DNA of 63,648 bases from assembly GCA_030066175.1 (NCBI GenBank), contig JASJCC010000001.1:1-63648 (forward strand), written 5' to 3'. This document shows positions 5,742 through 58,139 of the stretch, piece by piece; position 1 is the stretch's first letter; each line of letters starts with the position of its first letter. The DNA is from Paracoccaceae bacterium (lineage in GTDB: Bacteria > Pseudomonadota > Alphaproteobacteria > Rhodobacterales > Rhodobacteraceae). Position numbers and translations under genes: made by a program. The notes beneath the pieces were generated by a model. The model was not told the DNA's origin. It did not search any database and worked only from the letters and a program-made list of their open reading frames with translations.

Positions 5742-6332
5742 ATGGCAAAAGCAATGAGCACACAAAATCTCGTGACAACCTCGGCAGAAGGGATTGCCGC
5801 CTCGGCGCGCGCTGTGCAGGGCAGGGGCTTACCCCCTGTGCACAAATGGAATCCGCCGTTCTGCGGTGACCTGGATATGCGGATCGCGCGGGATGGCACC
5901 TGGTTCTATTTGGGCACACCGATTGGGCGGTTTGAGCTGGTGAAGCTGTTTTCGTCGATCCTGCGCAAGGATGGGGATCAGTATTTCCTGGTCACTCCGG
6001 TCGAAAAGGTGGGAATCACCGTCGATGACGCGCCGTTTGTGGCGACGGATTTTGCCATTGCGGGGGAAGGTGCGGATCAGGTTTTGACCTTTGAGACCCA
6101 TGTGGGGGATTTTGCCACCGCCGGGCCCGAGCATCCGATCCGCGTGGACCGCGATCCCGACACCGGCGAACCCGCGCCTTACGTGCTGATCCGCGCCAAC
6201 CTCGAGGCGTTGATCGACCGCAAGAGCTTTTATCGCTTGGTCGAGCTTGGCGCGCATCACGAGGGCTGGTTTGGCGTGTGGTCGTTGGGGCAGTTCTTTC
6301 CGATGATCCCGTCGGATGAGCTGCCGGATTAA
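5742..6332 (+). CDS. DUF1285 domain-containing protein
   Basis: This is the 3' part of ORF 4845..6332. The realistic start is MAKAMSTQ (ATG 5742, alternative 5754). The conserved stretch PPVHKWNPPFCGDLDMRIARDGTWFYLGTPIGR... is typical of DUF1285. Confidence 0.75.
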   Translation: MAKAMSTQNLVTTSAEGIAASARAVQGRGLPPVHKWNPPFCGDLDMRIARDGTWFYLGTPIGRFELVKLFSSILRKDGDQYFLVTPVEKVGITVDDAPFVATDFAIAGEGADQVLTFETHVGDFATAGPEHPIRVDRDPDTGEPAPYVLIRANLEALIDRKSFYRLVELGAHHEGWFGVWSLGQFFPMIPSDELPD

Positions 6333-6334
6333 GC

Positions 6335-7099
6335 GTGATCCGGCTGGCTGCCAACATCACCCTGCTGGACTGGGGGCTGCCCCTGTTGGACCGTGTTTCT
6401 AAGGCGGGGCGAAGAGGCTTTGACGGGGTGGAGTGCCTGTTTCCCTACGCCGAACCTGCGGCGGTGTGGGTGGGGGAGTTGGAGGCGGCTGGGCTGCCCA
6501 TGGCGCTGATCAACACCCCAGCGCCGGATTGGGACGATGGCGACCGCGGCTGTGCGGCGATCCCGGGGCGAGAGGCGGTGTTCGCGGCGCAATTTGCCGA
6601 GGCCTGCGCCTATGCGCGCCAGATGGGGTGTAAGCGCATGCACGTGATGTCGGGGATCACGTCAGACCCGCGCGCCTTTGACCTGCTGGTGGCCAGTCTT
6701 CGCCTGGCCGCCCGCGCCGCGCCCGACCTGACCTTGCTGATCGAGCCGTTGAACCCGAAGGACATGCCGGGCTATGTCCTCAACGATTATGATCTTGCAG
6801 TGGAGGTTCTAAAGGCCGTCGATTGCGCCAATGTAGGCCTGCAATTCGACACATGGCACGCGTTGCACATCCACGGTGATCCGCTGGCGGTTTGGGAAAA
6901 GCACCAAAGCCACGTGCGCCACGTCCAAATCTCAGGCTGGCAGGCCCGTGGCGCCCCCGACCTGACGCGCCCGGAAGAAGCCGGTTTGCTCAGGGCCATC
7001 GGCAGAGGTGTCTATGACGGCTGGGTCAGTGCCGAATACTTCGACGCACCGGATGCACCAACTGACTGGTTAAACCGCGCAAACAAGCTGCTGGCTTAG
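6335..7099 (+). CDS. Hydroxypyruvate isomerase-like / xylose-isomerase-fold TIM-barrel protein
   Basis: 254-aa ORF with a GTG start. It shows the family pattern (LAANITLL..., FDGVECLFPY, HVMSG, LLIEPLN, QFDTWH). Confidence 0.7.
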   Translation: MIRLAANITLLDWGLPLLDRVSKAGRRGFDGVECLFPYAEPAAVWVGELEAAGLPMALINTPAPDWDDGDRGCAAIPGREAVFAAQFAEACAYARQMGCKRMHVMSGITSDPRAFDLLVASLRLAARAAPDLTLLIEPLNPKDMPGYVLNDYDLAVEVLKAVDCANVGLQFDTWHALHIHGDPLAVWEKHQSHVRHVQISGWQARGAPDLTRPEEAGLLRAIGRGVYDGWVSAEYFDAPDAPTDWLNRANKLLA

Positions 7100-18053: not shown

Positions 18054-18479
18054 TCAGTGGGGTGGGTTCCGGCTCGCCTGCACCGCTTTGATCCGCTCCG
18101 GCCATGTCGAGCGGATAAAGCCAAGGATATCCCATATGTCATCATCGCTGAGCGTGTCGGCAAAGCCCGGCATGCCGGAGGTGAAATTCGTGACACCGCG
18201 CCGTGCCAGCGCGCCTTGCCCACCCAGCTTGGTGTAGTCAAAGAGCAGCAGGTTGTCGTGGTGCCAGGTGTGTCCGGTCTCATCATGCGGCGGTGCGGGC
18301 AAGGTGCCATCGGCGTTTGGCACCCGCCAGTTGGGCTGGCCTTCCAGATCGGCGCCATGGCAAGCCGCGCAGTGTTCGGCATAGAGCACCTCACCCCGGC
18401 CGGTATCGCGATCCTCCAGCTCATGGCTCGCCAAAGCCGGCGATGCGGTCAGAAGAATGGCCAAAGCCAGCCCCCTCAT
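18054..18479 (-). CDS. Secreted c-type cytochrome, last gene of the copper operon
   Basis: 141 aa with a signal peptide (MRGLALAILLTASPALA) and the heme-binding motif CAACH. The start overlaps the multicopper oxidase stop. Confidence 0.85.
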   Translation of the reverse strand: MRGLALAILLTASPALASHELEDRDTGRGEVLYAEHCAACHGADLEGQPNWRVPNADGTLPAPPHDETGHTWHHDNLLLFDYTKLGGQGALARRGVTNFTSGMPGFADTLSDDDIWDILGFIRSTWPERIKAVQASRNPPH

Positions 18480-19786
18480 GCCACCTCCACCCAGGTTGTC
18501 ATGCCGCCCACGTGATGGCTAAGCATGTGGCAATGCATCATCCAACGCCCGGGATTGTCGAAGACGCAGAGGATGTCTTGCGTCTGACCCGGGTTCACCA
18601 GCGACGTATCGCGGAAATCCCCCAGGCTGCCATCGACGGCAAGCTCATAGAAATGATGCCCGTGCAGGTGAATGCCATGCGGCCAGCGCGTGCCATTCAC
18701 CAGGCGGATCCGGGCCGTTTCGCCCCGTTCGAAACGGGCAAAGGGCTCGGGCTGCATGTCCGAGATATCGTTCAGCGCCCAGATATTGTCGCCACCATGC
18801 GCGCCGCCCATGGCCCCGCCCATCATCGTCATGGTCAGGTCCTGGCTGACCTCTTCGGGTATCGGCAGGTCATTGGCAGGCAGCGCTTGGATCGCGGCGC
18901 TGCGCGGGGTCACAGAGCCAGACACCGGCAGACCACCCAAGGGATAAGCACCCATGCGGTGGTCCATCTCAAGCTCAACCGGGCCGGTCACGTCGGCGAT
19001 GATGTCCACCCGCTGCGCCGGGGCGAGGACGGGCAGATCATAGTCGCGCGGTGCTGCAATGGGCATCCCGTCCAAGGCGACGATCTTGCCCTGCAACCCT
19101 TTCAGGATCACCGGAAACACCCGATCGACCGCGGCATTGATCAGACGCAGGCGGACACGTTCACCCACTTGCAGCGTCACGTCCGGCAGAAACACCTTGG
19201 CATAGTTCCCCATCCGCCCGGCATGGGCGATGTCATGCCTGTTGCCGAAATCCTCGGTCAGCTGGCCATCCTCGGCCAGCCGCCAATCGGCCAGCACGGC
19301 AAAGAGGTCATGGTCCACATCCGGCGGGATGCTTTCCTCAATGATCAGCGGCCCCATTAGGCCGCGCGCGACCTGTTCATGCGACAGGTAATGTGAGTGA
19401 TACCAATAGGTTCCCGCATCTTTGGCGACAAAGCTGTAGTCAAAGCTGTCCCCCGGCGGCACCAGGTCCTGCGTCATCATCGGCACGCCGTCCATCGCGT
19501 TGTTCAGCCGGATGCCGTGCCAATGCACCGTCGCGCCCTGATCCAGGTTGTTCTGCAAACGCAAGTTCAGCGTGCCCCCTTGCCGCACGCGCAGTTCCGG
19601 CCCGGGGACCCCACCGTTAAAGCCCAATACCCGCGTTGGCCCGGCGTAGTCCTCGGGCAGGATCTGCTGCGTCAGCGCCTCGGCGGTCAGGATCGTCTGC
19701 GCCCCGGTCGCCAGGCCGGCCTTTGGAAGGGCGGCCATCGCGGCAGATGTCATCAGAAAGTCGCGTCGGTTCATCAGAGGCCTCAT
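18476..19786 (-). CDS. Multicopper oxidase (CopA/PcoA-like) with a Tat signal
   Basis: ORF 18476..19852. The start MRPLMNRRDFLMTSAAMAAL (ATG 19786) overlaps the copD stop as ATGA. Copper-site motifs are HWHG, WYHSH and HCHMLSH. Confidence 0.9.
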   Translation of the reverse strand: MRPLMNRRDFLMTSAAMAALPKAGLATGAQTILTAEALTQQILPEDYAGPTRVLGFNGGVPGPELRVRQGGTLNLRLQNNLDQGATVHWHGIRLNNAMDGVPMMTQDLVPPGDSFDYSFVAKDAGTYWYHSHYLSHEQVARGLMGPLIIEESIPPDVDHDLFAVLADWRLAEDGQLTEDFGNRHDIAHAGRMGNYAKVFLPDVTLQVGERVRLRLINAAVDRVFPVILKGLQGKIVALDGMPIAAPRDYDLPVLAPAQRVDIIADVTGPVELEMDHRMGAYPLGGLPVSGSVTPRSAAIQALPANDLPIPEEVSQDLTMTMMGGAMGGAHGGDNIWALNDISDMQPEPFARFERGETARIRLVNGTRWPHGIHLHGHHFYELAVDGSLGDFRDTSLVNPGQTQDILCVFDNPGRWMMHCHMLSHHVGGMTTWVEVA

Positions 19787-51299: not shown

Positions 51300-52122
51300 G
51301 CCGCAGGATCGAGGGCAGCAATTCGTGCAGGCGGTTCATTTCCTGCCGGCAGCGATGCATTTCCCATGCCGCGCCATCGGCGCCGACCCGCACCGCGATG
51401 TCCGGCTCCAGCCGCGCGATATTGCCGCCGACAAAGATCAGGATCTTGGGCGCGGCCAGCCGCAGCTCCACCACCACCCGCGCCAAGGCCCGCAGCCGGT
51501 CTGGTGTTGCCGCCGACAACCCGACGATCGGATAGCCGCCCTTGCGCACCATGTCGCTCAGCTGCACCTCGGTGCTGTTCAGCCGCAAGTCGACATCCCA
51601 GCCATCCTTGCGAAAGATGTCCGCGGCCATGGTGATGCCCAGCACATGCTTTTCGCCCGGCACCGTGGCAAAGAGCGCGCATTGATCGCCGCGCGGCGCA
51701 AAGGCTGGCGCCAGTTCCCGGATATCGCGCAAGAGGTGCAGCATACGCCCCGCTGCCACCGCCATGTCACGAAAGGTGATGCGATCCTCATCCCACATCT
51801 CGCCCAGATGGCGCGCCGCGGCACCGATGTGCCAGAGGCACAGCTCTTCATGTGAGGCGCCCTGCGCATGGGCATCGAGGATCATCTGCTTGGGGATCAT
51901 CGGGTCTTCGCCGATCAGCGCGGCGCACAGCACCTCAAGATCGGGCGGCACCACCGGCGGGCGTTCGGCGGCCCGTTCGGCGGTCGTGTCCCGCGCCCAA
52001 CGCGCCAACCTGACAATCACCTCTTGGGCCAGAACCATGAGCGCGGCATCCGACAGCCCGGCGCGCGCCTGGCCTGTCGCGTCGCCCTCAATCGCCCGGA
52101 CGGGGATTGGCATGTCGATCAT
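51292..52122 (-). CDS. Cobalamin (B12)-binding domain protein with no recognisable DNA-binding or catalytic domain
   Basis: 276 aa. The C-terminal Rossmann-like domain carries an ExHxxG variant of the DxHxxG B12 motif (GEKHVLGITMAADIF) and ...IVGLSA... Confidence 0.65.
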   Translation of the reverse strand: MIDMPIPVRAIEGDATGQARAGLSDAALMVLAQEVIVRLARWARDTTAERAAERPPVVPPDLEVLCAALIGEDPMIPKQMILDAHAQGASHEELCLWHIGAAARHLGEMWDEDRITFRDMAVAAGRMLHLLRDIRELAPAFAPRGDQCALFATVPGEKHVLGITMAADIFRKDGWDVDLRLNSTEVQLSDMVRKGGYPIVGLSAATPDRLRALARVVVELRLAAPKILIFVGGNIARLEPDIAVRVGADGAAWEMHRCRQEMNRLHELLPSILRPN

Positions 52123-52601
52123 TCTGGCCCCTCATACAGACCAGCCGCCCAGTCTTTGACTGCGCGGCATCACTACCCCTCGATTTCCACGATGGCAAAA
52201 CGTGCGGGACCACTCAATGAGACCAAAGGCCACTCTTGACACGTGCAGCGGCCCGGCCGAAGCGCTCGACCGGGCCGCGATTCACGCCGCCGCAAAAGTC
52301 ACGATCTCCTCCAGGTCCCCGCCTCCGGTGCGGTGCCGGTCCCTCACCCCGAAAGGTGCGGGGGCTCTCACTCCGGTGCTCTGGCAGGGTGATCATGACG
52401 GCAAGCATGAATCCCCCCCTGCAGCTTCATAAGACCACAGCGAATCGGTTTGCGCCATGCGCTGGATCAAATTCGTTAACAATTGGGCGCGCCGCGACAT
52501 CAGTGGCCGCCCGCAAGATAGAGAGGCTGTCGGGTGTGCGGGTGATAGGGACTTGAGCAAAAGACACATGGGTCCTGACCGATCAGATGGGCCCACGCGG
52601 C

Positions 52602-52925
52602 CTAAAGCGCGTTTTGTGCGCGCGCGTGGAGCAGGTGAAGCCATGCATTGTCCACTTCCCCGGGCGCGGACCTTGGAAGCGGGGTTGGCGAGGTTTCGAT
52701 CAGGTGCACCAACGTCCAGGCCAGTCCAAAGCAATCATCCGCGCCAAAACAGTCCAACAAGGCCTCAGCTTCGGCATCCGTCACCGGTTGCGAGATCGCA
52801 TGCAACGCGGTTTCAGCCCGTGCAATCGCGTCCTGCCCGCTGTCAATGGAAGGCAGCGGGCCCAATTCCACAAACGATTTGACCTCCGGTCGCATGTCGC
52901 CTCTCCACCCGGCCTTCTGGTTCAT
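52602..52925 (-). CDS. Hypothetical small acidic protein (immunity-protein-like)
   Basis: 107-aa ORF. An alternative start at MRPEVKSF (52895) follows GGAGAGG. The sequence looks protein-like (DAEAEALLDCFGADDCFGLAWTLVHLIE). I could not name a family. Confidence 0.5.
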   Translation of the reverse strand: MNQKAGWRGDMRPEVKSFVELGPLPSIDSGQDAIARAETALHAISQPVTDAEAEALLDCFGADDCFGLAWTLVHLIETSPTPLPRSAPGEVDNAWLHLLHARAQNAL

Positions 52926-53158
52926 GAACGCCCAATCTTTGCCAACAGGTTACCAGATTTGGAGCGTGTGATTAGGACCACGCTGGTATGAGAGCAATGC
53001 GGTCAAGCCGTTGCCCGAGCATTCAGAAGGGATTCGGGCATGCGTTTCGCAGACCGCTCAAGGCAACAGGGTCCTATGAGAAAGTGGATTACCTATACGC
53101 TTGCCTTCCCGAAAAACCCAAGTATCCCTTCTTTTGCCTTTTCACCGGAGACATCCAG

Positions 53159-53761
53159 ATGCCCCCATTGTTGGCTCCTGCCGATACAACCCTACGGCGC
53201 AATCCGCAAGAACCACTTAGCTATCAGCTCTACGATACCTTCGAAGACTACCTGTCACCGCCCATTGAAGAACGCTTGAGAGAGATGAACCAAGCGTATC
53301 CCATCAAGGGGCTTTCCGCCTTTGTCTCAAACGGCGAAATCACCAAGGGCCAGTGGGTACTCTATACGCAGACCTGCCTTGTCGGACAAATCACCAATGG
53401 CGGCGTCGCGCAATTCATTGATAACTGCCCCGGCCTTATTCTGGATGCAGAGAAACTGTTATCCGAATTCGGCCCCAAAGAAATGCAGGATGCTTATTCG
53501 CTTGCTGCGCAACGCTTCCTCGATGTCATTGGCCAGCATGCCCGTCTCAATCCCGAGGCAACCGGGGATGATCTGGATCCTTTCTGGGCGGACCTTGAGG
53601 CCGCATGGCGTGATGATGACGAGGAACGCTTTCAGGCGCTTGAGGACGCTTGTTACGCGCCTGATCGGAACGATGACGCATCCAATTGGTTCACGCAGTT
53701 GGAAAAACACGTCTTGGATTGGGTCTTGGAAAATCCAGGTGACTTTGTCGCGGCCAGCTAG
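53159..53761 (+). CDS. DUF4375 / DMP19-like protein (tentative)
   Basis: This is the 3' part of ORF 52988..53761. The start MPPLLAP follows GGAGA. VGQITNGGVAQFIDN resembles the NGGF-Q-F-N core of DUF4375. Confidence 0.55.
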   Translation: MPPLLAPADTTLRRNPQEPLSYQLYDTFEDYLSPPIEERLREMNQAYPIKGLSAFVSNGEITKGQWVLYTQTCLVGQITNGGVAQFIDNCPGLILDAEKLLSEFGPKEMQDAYSLAAQRFLDVIGQHARLNPEATGDDLDPFWADLEAAWRDDDEERFQALEDACYAPDRNDDASNWFTQLEKHVLDWVLENPGDFVAAS

Positions 53762-53927
53762 GTGTCTGACAGCGATCTTACCCTGGTTTAGGATCGCAAA
53801 TGAAGCCGCATACCAGATTGGGCCGCGCTTTACGAAATCGGTACTGTTCGAGCGTGGATCTGCCAGGACTTATCAAGGCCGAGTGCAAACTGTTGGACAA
53901 CGTGCTGTGTTTTGCTAGCCTTCCGAA

Positions 53928-54248
53928 ATGAATAGAAAAACCCGCGGCATCGATGTCCAAGCCGAATTGCTTCCCGACGGAAGCTTTTCTCCAAAGCTCA
54001 TAGCCTTTCTGAAACAAGCACAGTCGGAAATGAACGCGCAAGCCGTTGATTTCAAGCAGCCCCCCTGGCGCGCGGTTCCGGACTACGAAAGGCATTCGAT
54101 GGGCTGGAGGATGGGCCCTGGAGAAGACTATTCTTTGGCTTTCGACTCCTGGCTGAAAGGCCTCAGCCCCGCGGAGTTTCAAGAATTTGTGTCGCAGCAC
54201 CCCGAGCCGGAGGGGTGGGAAGGCTTTTACAAAAGCATTCGTGTCTAA
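53928..54248 (+). CDS. Hypothetical small protein
   Basis: 106-aa ORF with protein-like sequence (PWRAVPDYERHSMGWRMGPGEDYSLAFDSWLKGLSPAEFQEF). The RBS is weak. Confidence 0.5.
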   Translation: MNRKTRGIDVQAELLPDGSFSPKLIAFLKQAQSEMNAQAVDFKQPPWRAVPDYERHSMGWRMGPGEDYSLAFDSWLKGLSPAEFQEFVSQHPEPEGWEGFYKSIRV

Positions 54249-54282
54249 TCCCGTGAAGACCGGAGTGTCCTGATCCGGCTGA

Positions 54283-54666
54283 TTTGTTGTCGGCAGCTTC
54301 ATCAGCACCGACCCGCTCGACCCTGACGCCCTGCCGCAGGACATCATCGCCAACGTGGTGCTGCTCAAAGACTGGATCGCCGCGCTGCTACAAACCCTCG
54401 CCGGCCATCCCCTCGAAGGTGACGCGCTGCGCGACCTGCGGGACATCCAGCTTGGCTAAATGGATGGCGAGGTCTCGAACTTGCTCAACGGCCGCGTCCT
54501 CCCTGGCGAAGACCCGGCGGAACGCGTGCTGCGGAACCTCGAAAAGCTGTATGTCCTGCTCGTCACCCAAACCGGCAAGGCCGAGGCCTGGGCAACCCAA
54601 CCCCAAGCCGCCTACCCAACATTCGAGATTGTCAAACTGCCCCTGGAAGGCAAAGCCAAACCCTAG
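54283..54666 (+). pseudogene. Reading frame with no start codon at its head and one in-frame TAA: a possible gene remnant, or two tiny coupled ORFs
   Basis: The frame opens after TGA 54280. It reads ...FISTDPLDPDALPQDIIANVVLLKDWIAALLQTLAGHPLEGDALRDLRDIQLG, then TAA (54457-54459), then in the same frame ATG 54460 MDGEVSNLLNGRVLPGEDPAERVLRNLEKLYVLL... through to 54666. Confidence 0.3.
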
Positions 54667-54741
54667 TGCGGTTTCCGCGCCCCGTCCGCGTGCATGTCCA
54701 CGGATGGCCCTGCCGCAGGCCCCATCATCAGAGTGGCCAAA

Positions 54742-55743
54742 TCAAAACCCCGACACCACGCCCGCGCCAATGGGCATGCCCTCTTCCACAATCACAAACC
54801 GTTGGAATTGTCCGATAGAGAGCGGCGCATCGAGTGTGATGGTCACCCAAGGGTTGTCCCCCGGATTCACTATTTCCGTTCCCTCCGACAATCTGATGGT
54901 CCCAACCACCGCACCGGATGAGAATTGAAAGGTCGCGCGGTGCTCACGGAAAAACGGCCTGCGTCGCCCGCCTTCGCCCGTGGTGAGCATATAGAGCTCT
55001 GAGTCAAAAGTGGTCTTGGGCGTGCCATCAGAACCCGTATCGGCAGCGGGTGCCTGCAAGATTTCCTTCTGCACGGCCGTCAGCAATTCGTTGATCTTCG
55101 CTTGCCCGTTCTCAGGGTCTCTGCCTTCCAGGGCGTCCAGAGCCGACCCGGCGATGATCGTCGTTTCCTCACCCGGATAGCCGTACGCGGAAAGCAGCTC
55201 TCGAATGTGCCTCTCGACGCTTTCCATAAACCCGACACTGCCCCCCGGGTAGTCATCGTTCACCATGTCTGTCTTGTTCAGAAAAACGACGAGGTTTTGA
55301 ATGCCGACCCTATTCCCAATTTCAAGATGATGTCCTGTCTGAGGCATAGGGCCGTCCGTGACGTTCACGACAAGAATGGCACCTTTTGGGCGCACATTTC
55401 CAAAGATCATCGACTTGATGATGTCCGCATGGCCTGGAAAGTCGAGCAAAGACACACTTGCGCCGTCCCAGCTGTACCCGACCTTTTGCCTAGAGTACTC
55501 GGTCAGCGGAGAGTCCGCCAGCGAGGCTTCGTTGATCTCAGGATAAGACAGATCCGCGCCATACGCAGACGATATCGCCGCAGCCAAGGTCGTCTTGCCA
55601 TGGTCCACATGCCCAATGATGAACACATCCGGCTCTGGCATCACTGCCGATGATTGCGCGCTTCCCCTCGCGCCAAGGGATACCCCCACCAACGCCGCCA
55701 CCCCCGACAAAAGCGCATCGCGTCGTTTCATGGTAAATGACAT
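54742..55743 (-). CDS. EF-Tu-derived GTPase paralog: G domain plus domain III, no domain II, with an N-terminal twin-arginine-like signal or anchor
   Basis: ORF 54742..55788. The start MSFTMKRRDALLSGVAALVGVSLGARGSAQS (ATG 55743) lies 7 nt after AAGGAG. G motifs are GHVDHGKTT, DFPGHADIIKSMI, GAILVVNVTDGPMPQT, NKTD and SAL. Domain III is recognisable from GEGGRRRPFF...NPGDN...IGAGVV. Confidence 0.8.
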   Translation of the reverse strand: MSFTMKRRDALLSGVAALVGVSLGARGSAQSSAVMPEPDVFIIGHVDHGKTTLAAAISSAYGADLSYPEINEASLADSPLTEYSRQKVGYSWDGASVSLLDFPGHADIIKSMIFGNVRPKGAILVVNVTDGPMPQTGHHLEIGNRVGIQNLVVFLNKTDMVNDDYPGGSVGFMESVERHIRELLSAYGYPGEETTIIAGSALDALEGRDPENGQAKINELLTAVQKEILQAPAADTGSDGTPKTTFDSELYMLTTGEGGRRRPFFREHRATFQFSSGAVVGTIRLSEGTEIVNPGDNPWVTITLDAPLSIGQFQRFVIVEEGMPIGAGVVSGF

Positions 55744-55903
55744 TCCCAATCTCCTTAGCTCAGCGAAACCGACGGCACCGCTGTTCAATCAGGGATAGAA
55801 TACAAAAGCTGGCACTGCCTGACGAGCCACCTCATCGCAGCCCGCCCCGCCCTCCGGCACGCCGGACAATCGGCACATGGTTGCGGCCAGCAAAAACGTC
55901 CCA

Positions 55904-55952
55904 CTGACGCGTCAGAACGTCGGACAGAATGGACCATACACGCGAATCGCGT
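55904..55952. promoter_or_regulatory. Two perfect palindromes in the divergent promoter region of the EF-Tu-like / TIR pair
   Basis: CTGACGCGTCAG lies at 55904-55915 and is flanked by direct AACGTC repeats. ACGCGAaTCGCGT lies at 55940-55952. Both are 33-81 nt upstream of the TIR gene's ATG. Confidence 0.35.
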
Positions 55953-55984
55953 TTAAGCTGCATCGGCAAACCCAAGTGATTGGT

Positions 55985-57532
55985 ATGACCAGCAAGATTG
56001 ACGTCTTCATCAGCTACAAACGTGAGGAGCGCGCTCTGTCCGAGCGCGTCAAACGCGCGTTGATCGATGCGGGCTACACGGCGGTCACCGATCTCAATAT
56101 CGGTAAGAATGACGAATTCGGCGACGCAATCGACACGATGATCCGCACGGCGTCGCTGACCCTGGTGCTCTGGACGCGCGAAGCGGCAGGGTCGGACTGG
56201 GTCCGCAAAGAGGCACGCCTGGCGCGCGATCTGCAAAAGGCCGGCAAGGGCAACCACTACCTCGGTGTGATGGTCGAAGATGTCGACCTCGACCTGCCGC
56301 CCGATCTGCGCGGCCTGCAGATGGTCGATATCCACGGGGGCGGGCTCGACGACGACGGGTTGGCGCAGGTGCTGGACGACGTCCGCGAGATCCTCGGCGC
56401 CGAGGCACGTCAAACCGCGCAAACCGCCGAGGCCGATAATGCGGCCCTGACCGAGGAATGGCAACTCTACATCCTCGCCCGGTCCATCAACGTCGCCGCC
56501 GCTTATGAACGGTATCTGCGCAAATACCCGCAGGGCGAGTTTGCCCAAGACGCCATTCTACAATTACAAAAATTAAGACCTTTAGCCTCGTTTCGACGTG
56601 GAGTAGGCAGTTTTTTGGCCAAATTGATGGATGCGCCCAGCGCCAAAACAGATTTGAATCAGCAAATCCAGGATAGTACATCAAATAAAAAAGTCGATGC
56701 CAAAAGCAATCGTAAGAGTAATTCGAAAAAGATATCAATAGCATCCAAGGTTACTCAGGACAGAGAAATTCTCAAAATCCGTGAAATTGATGGGCTCCTT
56801 ACTCACCAAGAAACTTCCATAGAAATAGATCCTCAATATTTGAAGTTTGCTCAACTTGCCTTGGAAAACCTAAAGCTAGATGAAAATACTTACGGTCTAT
56901 TGAGGGAGGTTTCTTTTTGCTTGGAGCTATCAATTTATAATGCATCAGATGAGACTTTTTTGCTTGAGTCCTTGCAGCTGCTAAGAGAGCAAATCTTGCA
57001 TCAGGGCAACGTTGACCAAGAACTGCGCCCGGACAAAAATCCCACCATACGGATTTCACTCAATTATATATCAAAGTCATTGCAATGCCTGGCGGATCGT
57101 TCGACACAAGATGTAGGTAACCAAACAGGAGAAAAGGAGTATGGAGAAATTATAATTCAAAACGAAGAAACGTTCACTGCAGTTTTAAATGCAAGCGAGG
57201 AATTGGAGGTTGTCTCTGATGATGCACTCAAAAGAGAAATACAAACGCTTAGAGAGATTTCAAGGAATAGCCAATCACCCTTGTCTGCACGAGCTCTGGC
57301 CGCCGGCAGGATCACAGCGCTTATCGCTAATGCATGGATTATTGCTACCGTTTCTCGCGTTAGTCAGACAGCAGAAAGGATAGACAACATAACTGAAAAG
57401 TCAGCGCGAATAATCAAAAATACTACAATAATTGTAGGCGGTAGTAGTGCCGCAGTCGCAACGGTAGCGTACCTCTCAAAAGCTGAAAACCTGAAAAAGG
57501 CCCTCTCTCTTTTGGAGAACCTCTTAAGGTGA
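55985..57532 (+). CDS. TIR-domain protein with a helical, low-GC C-terminal region ending in two hydrophobic segments
   Basis: ORF 55877..57532, with the likely start MTSKIDVFISYKREE (ATG 55985). TIR hallmarks are DVFISY and SDWVRKEA (W-x-x-x-E). A YbgF/TPR-like YERYLRKYPQGEFAQDA follows. From about 56555 onward the sequence is AT-rich and its domain is unknown. Confidence 0.8.
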   Translation: MTSKIDVFISYKREERALSERVKRALIDAGYTAVTDLNIGKNDEFGDAIDTMIRTASLTLVLWTREAAGSDWVRKEARLARDLQKAGKGNHYLGVMVEDVDLDLPPDLRGLQMVDIHGGGLDDDGLAQVLDDVREILGAEARQTAQTAEADNAALTEEWQLYILARSINVAAAYERYLRKYPQGEFAQDAILQLQKLRPLASFRRGVGSFLAKLMDAPSAKTDLNQQIQDSTSNKKVDAKSNRKSNSKKISIASKVTQDREILKIREIDGLLTHQETSIEIDPQYLKFAQLALENLKLDENTYGLLREVSFCLELSIYNASDETFLLESLQLLREQILHQGNVDQELRPDKNPTIRISLNYISKSLQCLADRSTQDVGNQTGEKEYGEIIIQNEETFTAVLNASEELEVVSDDALKREIQTLREISRNSQSPLSARALAAGRITALIANAWIIATVSRVSQTAERIDNITEKSARIIKNTTIIVGGSSAAVATVAYLSKAENLKKALSLLENLLR

Positions 57533-57644
57533 AACTGCCAGTGTCACTTGGCCCAAAGACACGAAAGCAACCAAAAATTGCTAGCAATGCCGTGGTTGAA
57601 AGAATGCGCATTAAGGGACTTCGTGCAATTCCGCCGGCGTGCTG

Positions 57645-58139
57645 CTACAACCGCCGATACATCACCAGCGCGTCCACCTCACCTTCGACTGGATGCCGGA
57701 AGGCCCCCGGCAACCGCCCGACCACGTCAAAGCCGGCGCGTTGCCAGGTCTCTATGGCGCGGGTGTTGGTGGCGATGACGAAGTTGTATTGCATGGCGGT
57801 GAAGCCAAACCCTGGCGCCACCTCCAAAGAATGCGCCAACATCGCCCGCGCAACGCCGCGGCCTTGGGCGGCAGGCGCAGTGATGTAGCCGCAATTGCAG
57901 ACATGTGACCCGCCGCCTTTCTGGTTGCGCACCATGTAGTAGGTGCCCAAGGCGACCCCGTCCTCTTCGGCGACAAAGACCCGCCGCTCCGGCCCGGTCC
58001 AATAGGCCAGGGCGTCGGCCTCTGAGATATCCGGGTCGATCGCATAGGTGTCGCCAGCGCGGAATACCGGCATCAGCATCGCCGTCACGACCTCGGCATC
58101 CTCGCGCCGATAGGGGCGGAGCGTGATCCCCTGCTTCAT
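57645..58139 (-). CDS. GNAT family N-acetyltransferase
   Basis: 164 aa. The acetyl-CoA binding motif is QGRGVARAML. Confidence 0.85.
   Translation of the reverse strand: MKQGITLRPYRREDAEVVTAMLMPVFRAGDTYAIDPDISEADALAYWTGPERRVFVAEEDGVALGTYYMVRNQKGGGSHVCNCGYITAPAAQGRGVARAMLAHSLEVAPGFGFTAMQYNFVIATNTRAIETWQRAGFDVVGRLPGAFRHPVEGEVDALVMYRRL

Follow-up and report, generated by a model that had tools for sequence, protein, structure and literature searches.

What is a protein that resembles elongation factor Tu (EF-Tu), lacks the second of its three domains and begins with what looks like an export signal? This question is raised by a gene on the minus strand (54742..55743) of the window, that is, the whole stretch of 63,648 nucleotides from a Paracoccaceae bacterium that was analysed here. 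EF-Tu ranks with the most conserved and most thoroughly studied of all proteins. Its paralogs are thought to be three-domain, cytoplasmic and translational, and a family that is devoid of domain II and crosses the membrane would break this pattern. The duplicated and diverged EF-Tu-family genes with specialised roles, such as actinomycete EF-Tu3 (actEF-Tu), SelB and nematode mitochondrial EF-Tu1/2 (PMC4342817), resemble the window gene in being such paralogs, but they keep domain II, are cytoplasmic or organellar, and act in translation.

The window gene starts with an ATG at 55741-55743 and ends with a stop codon at 54742-54744. A Shine-Dalgarno sequence, AAGGAG (55751..55756, minus strand), lies 7 nt 5' of the ATG. 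The frame of 333 codons is uninterrupted and its product shows about 45% identity to EF-Tu. The original prediction, made from the letters of the DNA, had stressed both this strong ribosome-binding site and the intact frame, and both were confirmed.

We then analyzed the domain layout of the protein. As assigned by Pfam, by phmmer against the PDB and by an AlphaFold model, residues 36-229 (55057..55638, minus strand) form the G domain, which corresponds to domain I of EF-Tu, and residues 242-333 (54745..55020, minus strand) form the beta-barrel of domain III. In the Pfam search of the full 333 residues, GTP_EFTU matched residues 40-226 (E=1e-28) and GTP_EFTU_D3 matched residues 241-331 (E=1e-14), and there was no match to GTP_EFTU_D2. 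The phmmer alignment (E=7e-64) paired residues 35-228 with EF-Tu 9-199 and residues 220-331 with EF-Tu 277-389. That is, the alignment passes directly from residue 199 of EF-Tu to residue 277, and the approximately 90 residues of domain II are absent. The alignment and the model place a 12-residue linker at the expected site of domain II (residues 230-241; 55021..55056, minus strand), and these residues, QAPAADTGSDGTP, are the sole joint between the two domains. The absence of domain II had been predicted, and the HMMER alignment of the domain boundaries, together with the linker and the two-domain model, showed a clean deletion rather than a diverged domain.

The motifs of the nucleotide pocket are all present on the minus strand: the P-loop GHVDHGKT (G1; residues 44-51, 55591..55614), the switch II motif DFPGH (G3; residues 101-105, 55429..55443), NKTD (G4; residues 156-159, 55267..55278) and SAL (G5; residues 200-202, 55138..55146). 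These are the motifs that the earlier reading had listed as retained. It had also described switch I as replaced, and this held as well. In the alignment, the effector region (residues 61-83, equivalent to residues 40-62 of E. coli EF-Tu; 55495..55563, minus strand) carries SPLTEY in place of RGITI. The G2 element was not found, in that a Glu aligns to the Mg-coordinating Thr61 of the E. coli protein and a Thr sits one residue earlier. Compared with pseudo-GTPases, which bind nucleotide but do not cycle and in which the fold is kept and catalytic or switch elements are lost, the window protein gives a mixed picture: switch I and Thr61 are lost, but the glycine of DxxG and His84 are still there.

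The AlphaFold (AF2) model consisted of two domains only and was predicted with a pLDDT of 88.5 and a pTM of 0.84. Its best matches in the PDB were open or GDP forms of EF-Tu (1EFC, 1D8T, 6MIJ and 1TUI; TM 0.80-0.83), whereas the ribosome-bound GTP state of EF-Tu gave a TM of only 0.54.

Compared with canonical EF-Tu, the window protein has a homologous G domain and domain III with about 45-49% identity to the EF-Tu of Rhodobacterales, and it carries alphaproteobacterial signatures such as EGRDPExG. In contrast, it has neither domain II, nor Thr61, nor the contact residues for tRNA and the aminoacyl group, and a signal peptide takes the place of the N-terminal tail. It lacks the core of translational GTPases, in which the G domain is followed by the beta-barrel of domain II. 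It also fell far below the curated EF-Tu cut-offs of the equivalog model TIGR00485 and the subfamily model NF000766, with 223 bits against 522.4, that is, less than half, and 233 bits against 449. The window protein cannot be a translation factor, and we regard it as almost certain that the gene product is a non-translational, two-domain derivative of EF-Tu.

The N-terminus was examined with a home-made, TATFIND-like rule (Z-R-R-x-Phi-Phi in the n-region, then 13 or more uncharged residues, then a c-region that is short and polar). The N-terminus MSFTMKRRDALLSGVAALVGVSLGARGSAQS passed this rule, with KRRDAL at residue 6 followed by an uncharged stretch of 16 residues. The twin-arginine-type signal peptide occupies residues 1-31 (55651..55743, minus strand) and consists of KRRDAL, the h-region LLSGVAALVGVSLGA and a c-region, ARGSAQS, with one basic residue, an arginine; its pLDDT in the model was below 50. 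Cleavage is likely after GSA or LGA, and the predicted mature N-terminus would lie about 9 residues ahead of the first strand, as in EF-Tu. Of the 204 six-frame ORFs in the window with a length of 100 residues or more, only two satisfied the rule, and the second encodes a multicopper-oxidase-like protein with the classic Tat signal MNRRDFL. All seven RR-bearing relatives satisfied it. The Tat-like N-terminus of the original prediction was therefore upheld, behind a strong ribosome-binding site, and on these sequence features the window protein is probably exported.

To our knowledge there is no Tat substrate with a P-loop GTPase fold, and our literature search for one found none. The NADP-containing glucose-fructose oxidoreductase is a Tat substrate that is exported with its nucleotide cofactor bound. 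The window protein resembles this type in that a twin-arginine signal precedes a nucleotide-binding domain, so that folding and loading of the ligand would be needed in the cytoplasm. The known nucleotide-cofactor Tat substrates, however, are redox enzymes, whereas the window protein has the fold of a P-loop GTPase.

An exhaustive HMMER search, of which the best 150 matches define the size of the family as known here, gave about 20 small clusters (at 50% identity) that share the deletion of domain II, and their members align over the whole protein as one stretch. No relative above 44% identity to the window protein was found among the matches listed. RR signals occur in seven clusters (WIN, which is the window protein, P0271, P0122, P0123, P0129, P0151 and P0205). 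A signal of the Sec or lipoprotein type is present in two others and an N-terminal membrane anchor in four, and some members are cytoplasmic. Targeting of the family across the membrane would be mostly by way of Tat, the route for folded proteins.

Other searches returned little beyond canonical EF-Tu. A word-indexed protein search with the whole window protein found itself and canonical EF-Tu only; three shorter matches in it, P0031, P0057 and P0120, were rejected as relatives, being ordinary EF-Tu in which domain II is partly gapped. Likewise, tblastn against plasmids and phages found canonical tuf only, with no domain-II-less relative. Searches with the family alignment after masking of the 5-mers shared with EF-Tu gave almost nothing, one of them being swamped by low-complexity N-rich words. 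A gapped DNA pattern for the domain-II-less spacing, whose third anchor was weak, was run on genome contigs, and the 120 listed loci comprised 112 with canonical tuf and 8 with a frameshifted or truncated tuf. A stricter pattern on metagenome contigs gave one true match, L139, a gut relative of P0145. Two surveys of translational GTPases describe no domain-II-less or exported subfamily, and this set of domain-II-less, extracytoplasmic EF-Tu-like proteins is rare and, it appears, has not been described before. Trimming of signals by gene callers and homology-guided annotation, as happened to the window gene and to the Ruegeria homolog WP_353011073, and the generic product names used for the family ('GTP-binding protein' or 'elongation factor Tu') have made it invisible in databases.

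Next, residue conservation was compared across 17 family members. The guanine pocket is kept, with G1, the Asp of G4 and the Ser-Ala of G5 each found in 15 of the 17. The switch residue T61 is kept in one of 17, the glycine of DxxG in 7 and His84 in 10. Most of the contacts with aminoacyl-tRNA are lost, R58 being kept in 3 of the 17, N90 at the K89/N90 site in 2, and H66 and R333 in one each. One member, P0163, has no G motif at all. When the family was searched for conserved residues of its own, neither a derived residue nor a surface patch proved to be common to its members, which argues against one common ligand.

The dN/dS among homologs, which the original prediction had proposed to estimate, was obtained from two close pairs among the relatives of the window gene. 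In the first pair it was 0.13-0.14, with 15.5 synonymous and 6.5 non-synonymous changes (binomial p=4e-6), and in the second it was 0.29 (p=0.015). Purifying selection acts on relatives that share this architecture.

As for the origin of the family, a neighbour-joining tree was star-like with long branches and by itself left one origin or several undecided; a test of lineage-specific sites is better evidence on this point. At sites where the tuf of Rhodobacterales differs from another alphaproteobacterial tuf, the window protein has the Rhodobacterales state by 25 to 2. The origins look recurrent, because the lineage-specific states found in the members are those of differing local tuf genes. 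That is, judged from these residues, a domain-II-less EF-Tu looks to have arisen repeatedly.

We also examined the genomic context. The window gene lies in an island of low GC content that also carries TIR_2 and DMP19-like genes, and its divergently transcribed neighbour encodes a TIR_2-domain protein (55877..57532, plus strand; likely start ATG at 55985). Scans for promoters, terminators, tRNAs and repeats around the island gave nothing informative. The distant relative P0163 also directly adjoins a TIR_2 protein, and for this reason the window protein may be functionally linked to its TIR neighbour. At the P0163 locus the TIR_2 gene lies 63 nt downstream and its product combines a membrane helix with a large extracytoplasmic region; an nSTAND1 NTPase is encoded upstream and a toxin-antitoxin pair downstream. 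A TIR gene is directly adjacent in two of about 11 family loci, for which the chance is roughly estimated at 1e-4. The two TIR proteins resemble each other in the TIR domain only (31% identity over 65 residues). That of the window is mostly cytoplasmic, with weakly hydrophobic C-terminal helices, so that a contact with it in the periplasm is not obvious, and tblastn with it against plasmids and phages gave no match. In PADLOC-DB 2.0 the neighbouring TIR proteins matched generic TIR models only, and weakly, and the EF-Tu-like proteins of the window and of locus L140 had no match.

As regards other members, the Ruegeria homolog lies inside a Tn7-like element, and the Streptomyces homolog adjoins a Tn3 transposase and an integrase. 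No neighbour was conserved family-wide among the approximately 11 loci. A GcvH-like exported protein adjoins the two closest relatives (L001 and L002) and was considered as a partner, but it was rejected, the window having no homolog of it.

From these findings we tentatively propose, with somewhat less than even confidence, that the window protein is a Tat-exported, non-cycling, EF-Tu-shaped binding protein, whose role, inferred as it is, is probably conflict-related. The protein would fold around a guanine nucleotide while still in the cytoplasm, and the Tat pathway would move it, already folded, across the membrane. Since the periplasm has no GTP, ribosome or EF-Ts, the protein would then be fixed in an open, GDP-like shape and would not cycle; on this proposal it is therefore a static EF-Tu-shaped binding protein. 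It would serve as a bait, a decoy or an adaptor in a conflict system, possibly together with the adjacent TIR protein.

Judged from the residues kept, the chances seem to us evenly balanced that guanine nucleotide is held as a fixed cofactor. The original prediction had called an export signal on a GTPase paradoxical, there being no GTP in the periplasm. This paradox is softened, because Tat carries folded proteins with cofactors bound, and the family pattern fits a fixed nucleotide better than a GTPase cycle; it is not removed. Some members, as in Streptomyces, have no signal and are cytoplasmic. A Sec-type lipoprotein member keeps its G motifs, so that the link between Tat export and bound nucleotide is imperfect. 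If the proposal is true, the window protein would represent a new kind of Tat cargo, that is, a G domain that takes its nucleotide across the membrane.

That the role is one of conflict-related bait or adaptor we consider possible but rather doubtful; the suggestion comes from the genomic company of the family and from EF-Tu being so often targeted by phage proteins and by interbacterial toxins. EF-Tu is a recurrent hub of conflict, involving Avs7, Lit, type IV Thoeris, CDI toxins, Tse6 and Rhs2 (PMC13581612, PMC7690452, bioRxiv 10.1101/2024.10.24.620036). It is bound by CDI and T6SS toxins (PMC7690452; bioRxiv 10.64898/2026.05.10.723254), Avs7 incorporates it in the open form, and it is cleaved by Lit and by type IV Thoeris (PMC13581612). 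Avs7 specifically uses the open, GDP-type conformation that is predicted for the window protein, and Thoeris involves TIR proteins. These systems differ from the present one in that the EF-Tu which they use or attack is that of the cell itself, full-length and cytoplasmic, often through domain II, and none of them encodes an EF-Tu-like protein of its own or is extracytoplasmic. A point against a conflict role is that domain II, which is bound by the CDI toxin of strain NC101 (PMC5737660) and belongs to the surface of domains II-III contacted by Avs7 (PMC13581612), is missing here. If the link with TIR proteins and defence islands holds, a dedicated, host-encoded EF-Tu mimic would be connected with the growing number of immune systems and of toxins by which EF-Tu is exploited. 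We speculate further that tuf may have been repeatedly duplicated, stripped of domain II and exported as EF-Tu-shaped baits for phage or toxin proteins that grip EF-Tu, with the nucleotide as a fixed cofactor in what would be the first Tat cargo of the P-loop GTPase fold, and that some loci may signal to an immune response through a partner TIR protein (membrane-spanning in L140); taken as a whole, this scenario is unlikely.

An export of the protein for purposes unrelated to defence has also to be considered, namely as a dedicated 'moonlighting' EF-Tu that acts as an ATP-independent holdase of the envelope or as a surface or periplasmic adhesin. Several kinds of export signal recur in the family, the Firmicute members, which include a pair of proteins with the layouts [TM-I-III] and [TM-II-III], are membrane-anchored with their domains predicted outside the cell by the positive-inside rule, and the model resembles the open GDP form of EF-Tu, for which chaperone activity was reportedly described by Caldas et al. 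in 1998. Surface EF-Tu is a documented multifunctional adhesin (PMC6822514, PMC5593925), and it shares with the window protein an EF-Tu fold outside the cytoplasm (predicted for the latter); it is, however, a full-length translation factor with no signal, whereas the window gene is a separate, truncated gene with a dedicated one. For a housekeeping chaperone of the envelope one would expect a wide distribution and synteny, but the family is rare and patchy in its occurrence, evolves fast and rides on mobile and defence islands. Moreover, it shows no conserved surface patch, and its neighbourhoods contain no genes for adhesion or envelope biogenesis except for YfhO in one Firmicute locus. We therefore judge this explanation to be unlikely, while still giving it some weight.

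It is less probable that the protein starts at Met35 and stays in the cytoplasm as a soluble EF-Tu mimic, for example a bait for, or a regulator of, proteins that bind EF-Tu, the hydrophobic N-terminus being an artefact. The automatic gene call does begin there (database entry P0001, 299 residues, with the signal cut away), and the Ruegeria homolog is likewise annotated from an internal start. Signal-less members exist, such as Streptomyces P0132, which has stop codons just upstream and GAGGAGG before its GTG start, and the known defence mechanisms related to EF-Tu are all cytoplasmic (PMC13581612). However, no Shine-Dalgarno sequence precedes Met35, in contrast to the ATG at 55743, for which AAGGAG is ideally spaced, and the extension satisfies a Tat rule that hardly any ORF of the window does and would leave an EF-Tu-like mature N-terminus. 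In addition, each of the four closest relatives has an in-frame RR signal, as do three more clusters, and the annotation of the Ruegeria homolog cuts off an in-frame upstream RR extension. The possibility that the extension is a matter of start-codon choice, which the original prediction had itself raised, did not hold against this recurrence, and we retain the reading of an exported protein.

A decaying tuf duplicate, that is, a drifting relic with no function whose domain II was lost by deletion, is very improbable. The window gene is a singleton with no close ortholog, its GC3 is atypical (0.66 against about 0.80 in core genes), and it keeps just 55 of 91 canonically invariant EF-Tu positions. 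On the other hand, the frame is open, the ribosome-binding site and all four nucleotide motifs are intact, the fold is predicted with confidence, and both the clean domain boundary and the export signals recur in many independent clusters. The homologs are not decayed by frameshifts or stops, and the dN/dS of close pairs is well under 1. The earlier statement that the gene is not a dead pseudogene is thus strengthened by the approximately 20 clusters of the same architecture with open frames among the best 150 matches, by dN/dS values of 0.13-0.29, and by the fold prediction.

The binding site of kirromycin and enacyloxin is the interface of EF-Tu domains I and III, and kirromycin sensitivity is dominant, so that an exported protein of domains I and III that soaks up elfamycins and keeps ribosomes from being jammed would be useful. 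Precisely these two domains are preserved, and some members occur in Streptomyces beside a Tn3 transposase, but no biosynthetic cluster was seen in the contexts inspected. We rejected this idea as scarcely credible on the kirromycin-site residues: at four of the seven positions to which E. coli resistance mutations map, the window protein has a residue of the resistant type or a non-conserved one (E120, R124, T329 and V375), and these positions also vary family-wide.

The target open reading frame (54742-55743, minus strand) starts with ATG and stays open for 333 codons, and a Shine-Dalgarno sequence AAGGAG (55751-55756, minus strand) lies 7 nt upstream of the ATG; the intact frame and strong ribosome-binding site of the original prediction were thus found. 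In Pfam, residues 40-226 matched the EF-Tu GTP-binding domain (E=1e-28) and residues 241-331 matched EF-Tu domain III (E=1e-14), and no Pfam match to EF-Tu domain II was obtained. When the protein was aligned by phmmer to PDB sequences (E=7e-64), residues 35-228 corresponded to EF-Tu residues 9-199 and residues 220-331 to EF-Tu residues 277-389, and the linker between the G domain and domain III was only about 12 residues. These results indicate that domain II is absent from the target, not merely diverged, as had been read by eye. The motifs GHVDHGKT, DFPGH, NKTD and SAL were all intact, again as predicted, and the guanine pocket is intact. Switch I, which had been described as rewritten, carried SPLTEY in place of RGITI, with Glu aligned to Thr61. 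The NCBIfam EF-Tu models matched the target in two separate stretches, at less than half of their curated cut-offs. Because domain II is missing, switch I and Thr61 are not those of EF-Tu, the tRNA contacts are lost and the scores fall short of the curated cut-offs, the target should not be filed as EF-Tu or, in functional terms, as a translational GTPase. That is, the target is homologous to EF-Tu but lacks its defining features, and we consider it almost certainly a non-translational two-domain EF-Tu derivative.

A Tat-like N-terminus had also been proposed, and residues 1-31 (MSFTMKRRDALLSGVAALVGVSLGARGSAQS) do satisfy a TATFIND-like rule, with KRRDAL followed by 16 uncharged residues. Of the 204 six-frame open reading frames in the window that are 100 aa or longer, only 2 passed this rule. 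As judged from its sequence, the target qualifies as a Tat substrate, and it is probably exported. The second frame passing the rule (18476-19774, minus strand) encodes a protein of about 432 aa that resembles multicopper oxidases, and its twin-arginine signal (MNRRDFLMTSAAMAALPKAGLATGA) begins with MNRRDFL. A multicopper oxidase with such a signal is a classic type of Tat substrate.

The database gene call of the target locus (P0001, 299 aa) takes Met35 as its start and therefore misses the hydrophobic N-terminus. No Shine-Dalgarno sequence precedes Met35; an ideal one lies ahead of the ATG at 55743. The NCBI entry WP_353011073 (Ruegeria; L002 10001-10903) starts at an internal TTG that hides its signal, and the in-frame upstream ATG gives MKIELSRRHVIVSGLASSLSLTAPHSLA. 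Automatic annotation strips the signal peptide from both proteins.

An exhaustive HMMER search covered 1.84 billion representatives. Among the matches listed, proteins of 300-345 aa aligned to the whole target in one stretch, and these relatives therefore carry the same deletion. Their clusters are tiny (1-12 members), and NCBI names them "GTP-binding protein". Word-indexed searches returned only the target, the query family members, canonical or unrelated GTPases, and P0276, a further relative recovered with the family alignment; a DNA pattern scan of metagenome_contigs gave one true match, L139. We found no mention of a domain-II-less EF-Tu subfamily in two surveys of translational GTPases and no description of one in the literature searched. 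The architecture and location of the target are apparently new and undescribed while its fold is familiar, and its role is probably new.

Twin-arginine signals occurred in at least seven clusters, and all seven passed the Tat rule: the target (KRRDAL), P0271 of Ruegeria sp., which is WP_353011073 (SRRHVI), P0122 (TRREFL), P0123 (TRRHFM), P0129 (TRRELL), P0151 (ARRSLL) and P0205 (DRRAVV, with a lipobox as well). P0163 had a Sec-type signal and P0166 a lipoprotein-like one, P0140, P0148, P0193 and P0276 had an N-terminal membrane helix, and P0209 of a Planctomycetota bacterium had a multi-pass N-terminus. P0132 and P0196 of Streptomyces had no signal; in P0132, stop codons and GAGGAGG lie immediately upstream of the GTG start. 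Among the matches listed, the twin-arginine type made up 7 of the 9 cleavable signals, far above the usual share of Tat substrates, which suggests that folding in the cytoplasm matters for the family. Signal-less, domain-II-less proteins with decayed motifs were also seen, namely P0145 and its relative in L139 (10-618), from gut Firmicute-like metagenomes, and P0131, from a gammaproteobacterium-like source and most similar to the EF-Tu of E. coli. Domain II has therefore been lost in unexported proteins as well.

We then tallied key residues in 17 family members. The P-loop (G1), the G4 Asp and the G5 Ser-Ala were each kept in 15, His84 in 10 and the DxxG glycine in 7, and Arg58 was kept in 3, Asn90 in 2, and Thr61, His66 and Arg333 in 1 each. 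By this tally, the family conserves the guanine pocket but not GTP-driven switching, catalysis or the aminoacyl-tRNA machinery. The target is among the best-preserved members, keeping DFPGH and 55 of 91 canonically invariant EF-Tu positions. No family-conserved residue differing from canonical EF-Tu was found, and there is therefore nothing to suggest that the members share a new active site.

The AlphaFold2 model of the target, built with the family alignment (pLDDT 88.5, pTM 0.84), had residues 1-32 disordered and the remainder in two domains. Its best PDB matches by Foldseek were open, GDP-form EF-Tu structures (1EFC, 1D8T, 6MIJ and 1TUI; TM 0.80-0.83, rmsd 2.4-2.9 Å), whereas the ribosome-bound GTP state gave a TM of only 0.54 and no closed GTP-form crystal structure was among the best 50 matches. 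The model may reflect training bias, but it is consistent with a target fixed in the "off" shape.

Two close pairs of relatives sharing the target architecture showed purifying selection in their coding sequences. P0274 and P0151 differed by 15.5 synonymous and 6.5 non-synonymous changes (dN/dS 0.13-0.14; binomial p=4e-6), and P0273 and P0129 by 8 of each (dN/dS 0.29; p=0.015). Over shared columns, every member resembled canonical EF-Tu (47-56%) more closely than it did other members (37-42%). The P0123 gene (L003 7311-8324) lies directly downstream of canonical tuf (5885-7060) and is followed by a bacterial globin gene and then secE-nusG-rplK-rplA. At sites where this tuf and a Rhodobacterales tuf differ, P0123 sided with the tuf next to it 24 to 7 (p=0.003), the target sided with the Rhodobacterales tuf 25 to 2 (p=6e-6), and P0131 was of the E. 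coli type. From these matches, local tuf genes appear to have given rise to the architecture on more than one occasion, or else the copies were converted by local tuf. The lineage-specific residues that P0123 shares with the adjoining tuf suggest that its gene arose there, in the str/tuf region, by tandem duplication.

No neighbour gene was conserved throughout the family, and the neighbourhoods are those of mobile and conflict genes. P0163 (L140 591-1586; also L141 and L142), an exported-type EF-Tu-like protein by its sequence with all G motifs lost, has 63 nt downstream of it, in the same orientation, an 801-aa TIR_2 protein (L140 1649-4054). This protein is predicted to have a cytoplasmic TIR, one membrane helix (aa ~229-250) and an extracytoplasmic C-terminal region of about 550 residues. 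The locus also has an nSTAND1 NTPase on its upstream side and a ParE/Phd toxin-antitoxin pair on its downstream side, and it resembles a trans-membrane TIR module of a kind not yet characterised. The Ruegeria locus L002 is a Tn7-like element, also with lysozyme-like and M15 peptidase genes; the Streptomyces loci L007 and L008 contain a Tn3 transposase, an integrase, an AAA_15/21 fragment and a VMAP-M2 protein; and L004 has toxin-antitoxin modules within 6 kb.

The target itself (GC3 0.66, against ~0.80 in core genes) lies in a low-GC island at about 52000-58000 (GC 0.52-0.58, against ~0.64 elsewhere), bordered by a B12-binding-domain gene and a GNAT/class III alcohol dehydrogenase pair; the flanking genes assign the window to the roseobacter group of Rhodobacterales. 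The island holds a DMP19-like protein gene near the target (52988-53761) and small unannotatable frames (53928-54248 and 54460-54666); searches there for a tRNA gene, an integrase and flanking repeats found none. A TIR_2 protein gene (55877-57532, plus strand), with translation probably starting at the ATG at 55985, diverges from the target at a distance of 133 bp. An immediately adjacent TIR gene at 2 of 11 loci has a chance of about 1e-4, a crude and only indicative value based on an assumed frequency of about 3 TIR genes in 4000. The window TIR_2 gene is compositionally chimeric, with a host-like TIR part (GC 0.64, GC3 0.81) and a C-terminal half of GC 0.42 and GC3 0.40, and at the C-terminal end of its protein lie two helices of weak hydrophobicity (aa ~484-501 and 517-535). 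There is no PADLOC model for the target protein.

We propose that the target would take up a guanine nucleotide as it folds in the cytoplasm, be carried across the membrane by Tat already folded, be unable to cycle in the periplasm, and serve as a fixed, EF-Tu-shaped binding module. Its role may tentatively be that of a bait, decoy or adaptor in conflicts with phages or between bacteria, which we favour because of the genomic company and because EF-Tu is a well-documented hub. EF-Tu is bound by CDI toxins, Tse6 and Rhs2 (PMC7690452; bioRxiv 10.64898/2026.05.10.723254), the Avs7 sensor complex incorporates open-form EF-Tu, and EF-Tu is a cleavage target of Lit and type IV Thoeris (PMC13581612; bioRxiv 10.1101/2024.10.24.620036). 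However, domain II is the binding site for several known EF-Tu binders (PMC5737660, PMC13581612), and a target without it is a weak point of this role. Another is that the window TIR protein appears mostly cytoplasmic. Moreover, to our knowledge, the EF-Tu conflict cases are all cytoplasmic, whereas the target would be exported.

An envelope holdase or adhesin, that is, a specialised moonlighting EF-Tu, is an unlikely reading. A cytoplasmic EF-Tu mimic translated from Met35, where the database call begins, is improbable, since of the two starts only the upstream ATG has a Shine-Dalgarno sequence. It is very improbable that the target is a decaying relic; its frame is open and relatives of the same architecture are under purifying selection. 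An elfamycin sponge is hardly credible, since resistant-type residues at 4 of 7 kirromycin-site positions of the target contradict it.

Two further arrangements were observed beside relatives. Small GcvH-like proteins (PF01597; L001 3207-3662 and L002 9373-9849) adjoin P0122 and the Ruegeria P0121/P0271, the two closest relatives of the target among the matches listed; each has its own signal peptide and keeps the lipoyl-lysine motif E-[ST]-x-K-A-A-T-E, and no homolog occurs in the window. On a 26%-GC Firmicute-like gut contig (L014 7001-8149 and 8165-9004; also L015 and L016), membrane-anchored P0140 is followed after 15 nt by a 279-aa paralog that has EF-Tu domains II and III without the G domain and shares the N-terminal tail and membrane helix of P0140. 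These two proteins are a "split" EF-Tu pair anchored in the membrane, TM-I-III plus TM-II-III, and the positive-inside rule suggests that their domains face outward. Next to the pair in L014 are a 501-aa signal-anchored protein and then YfhO.
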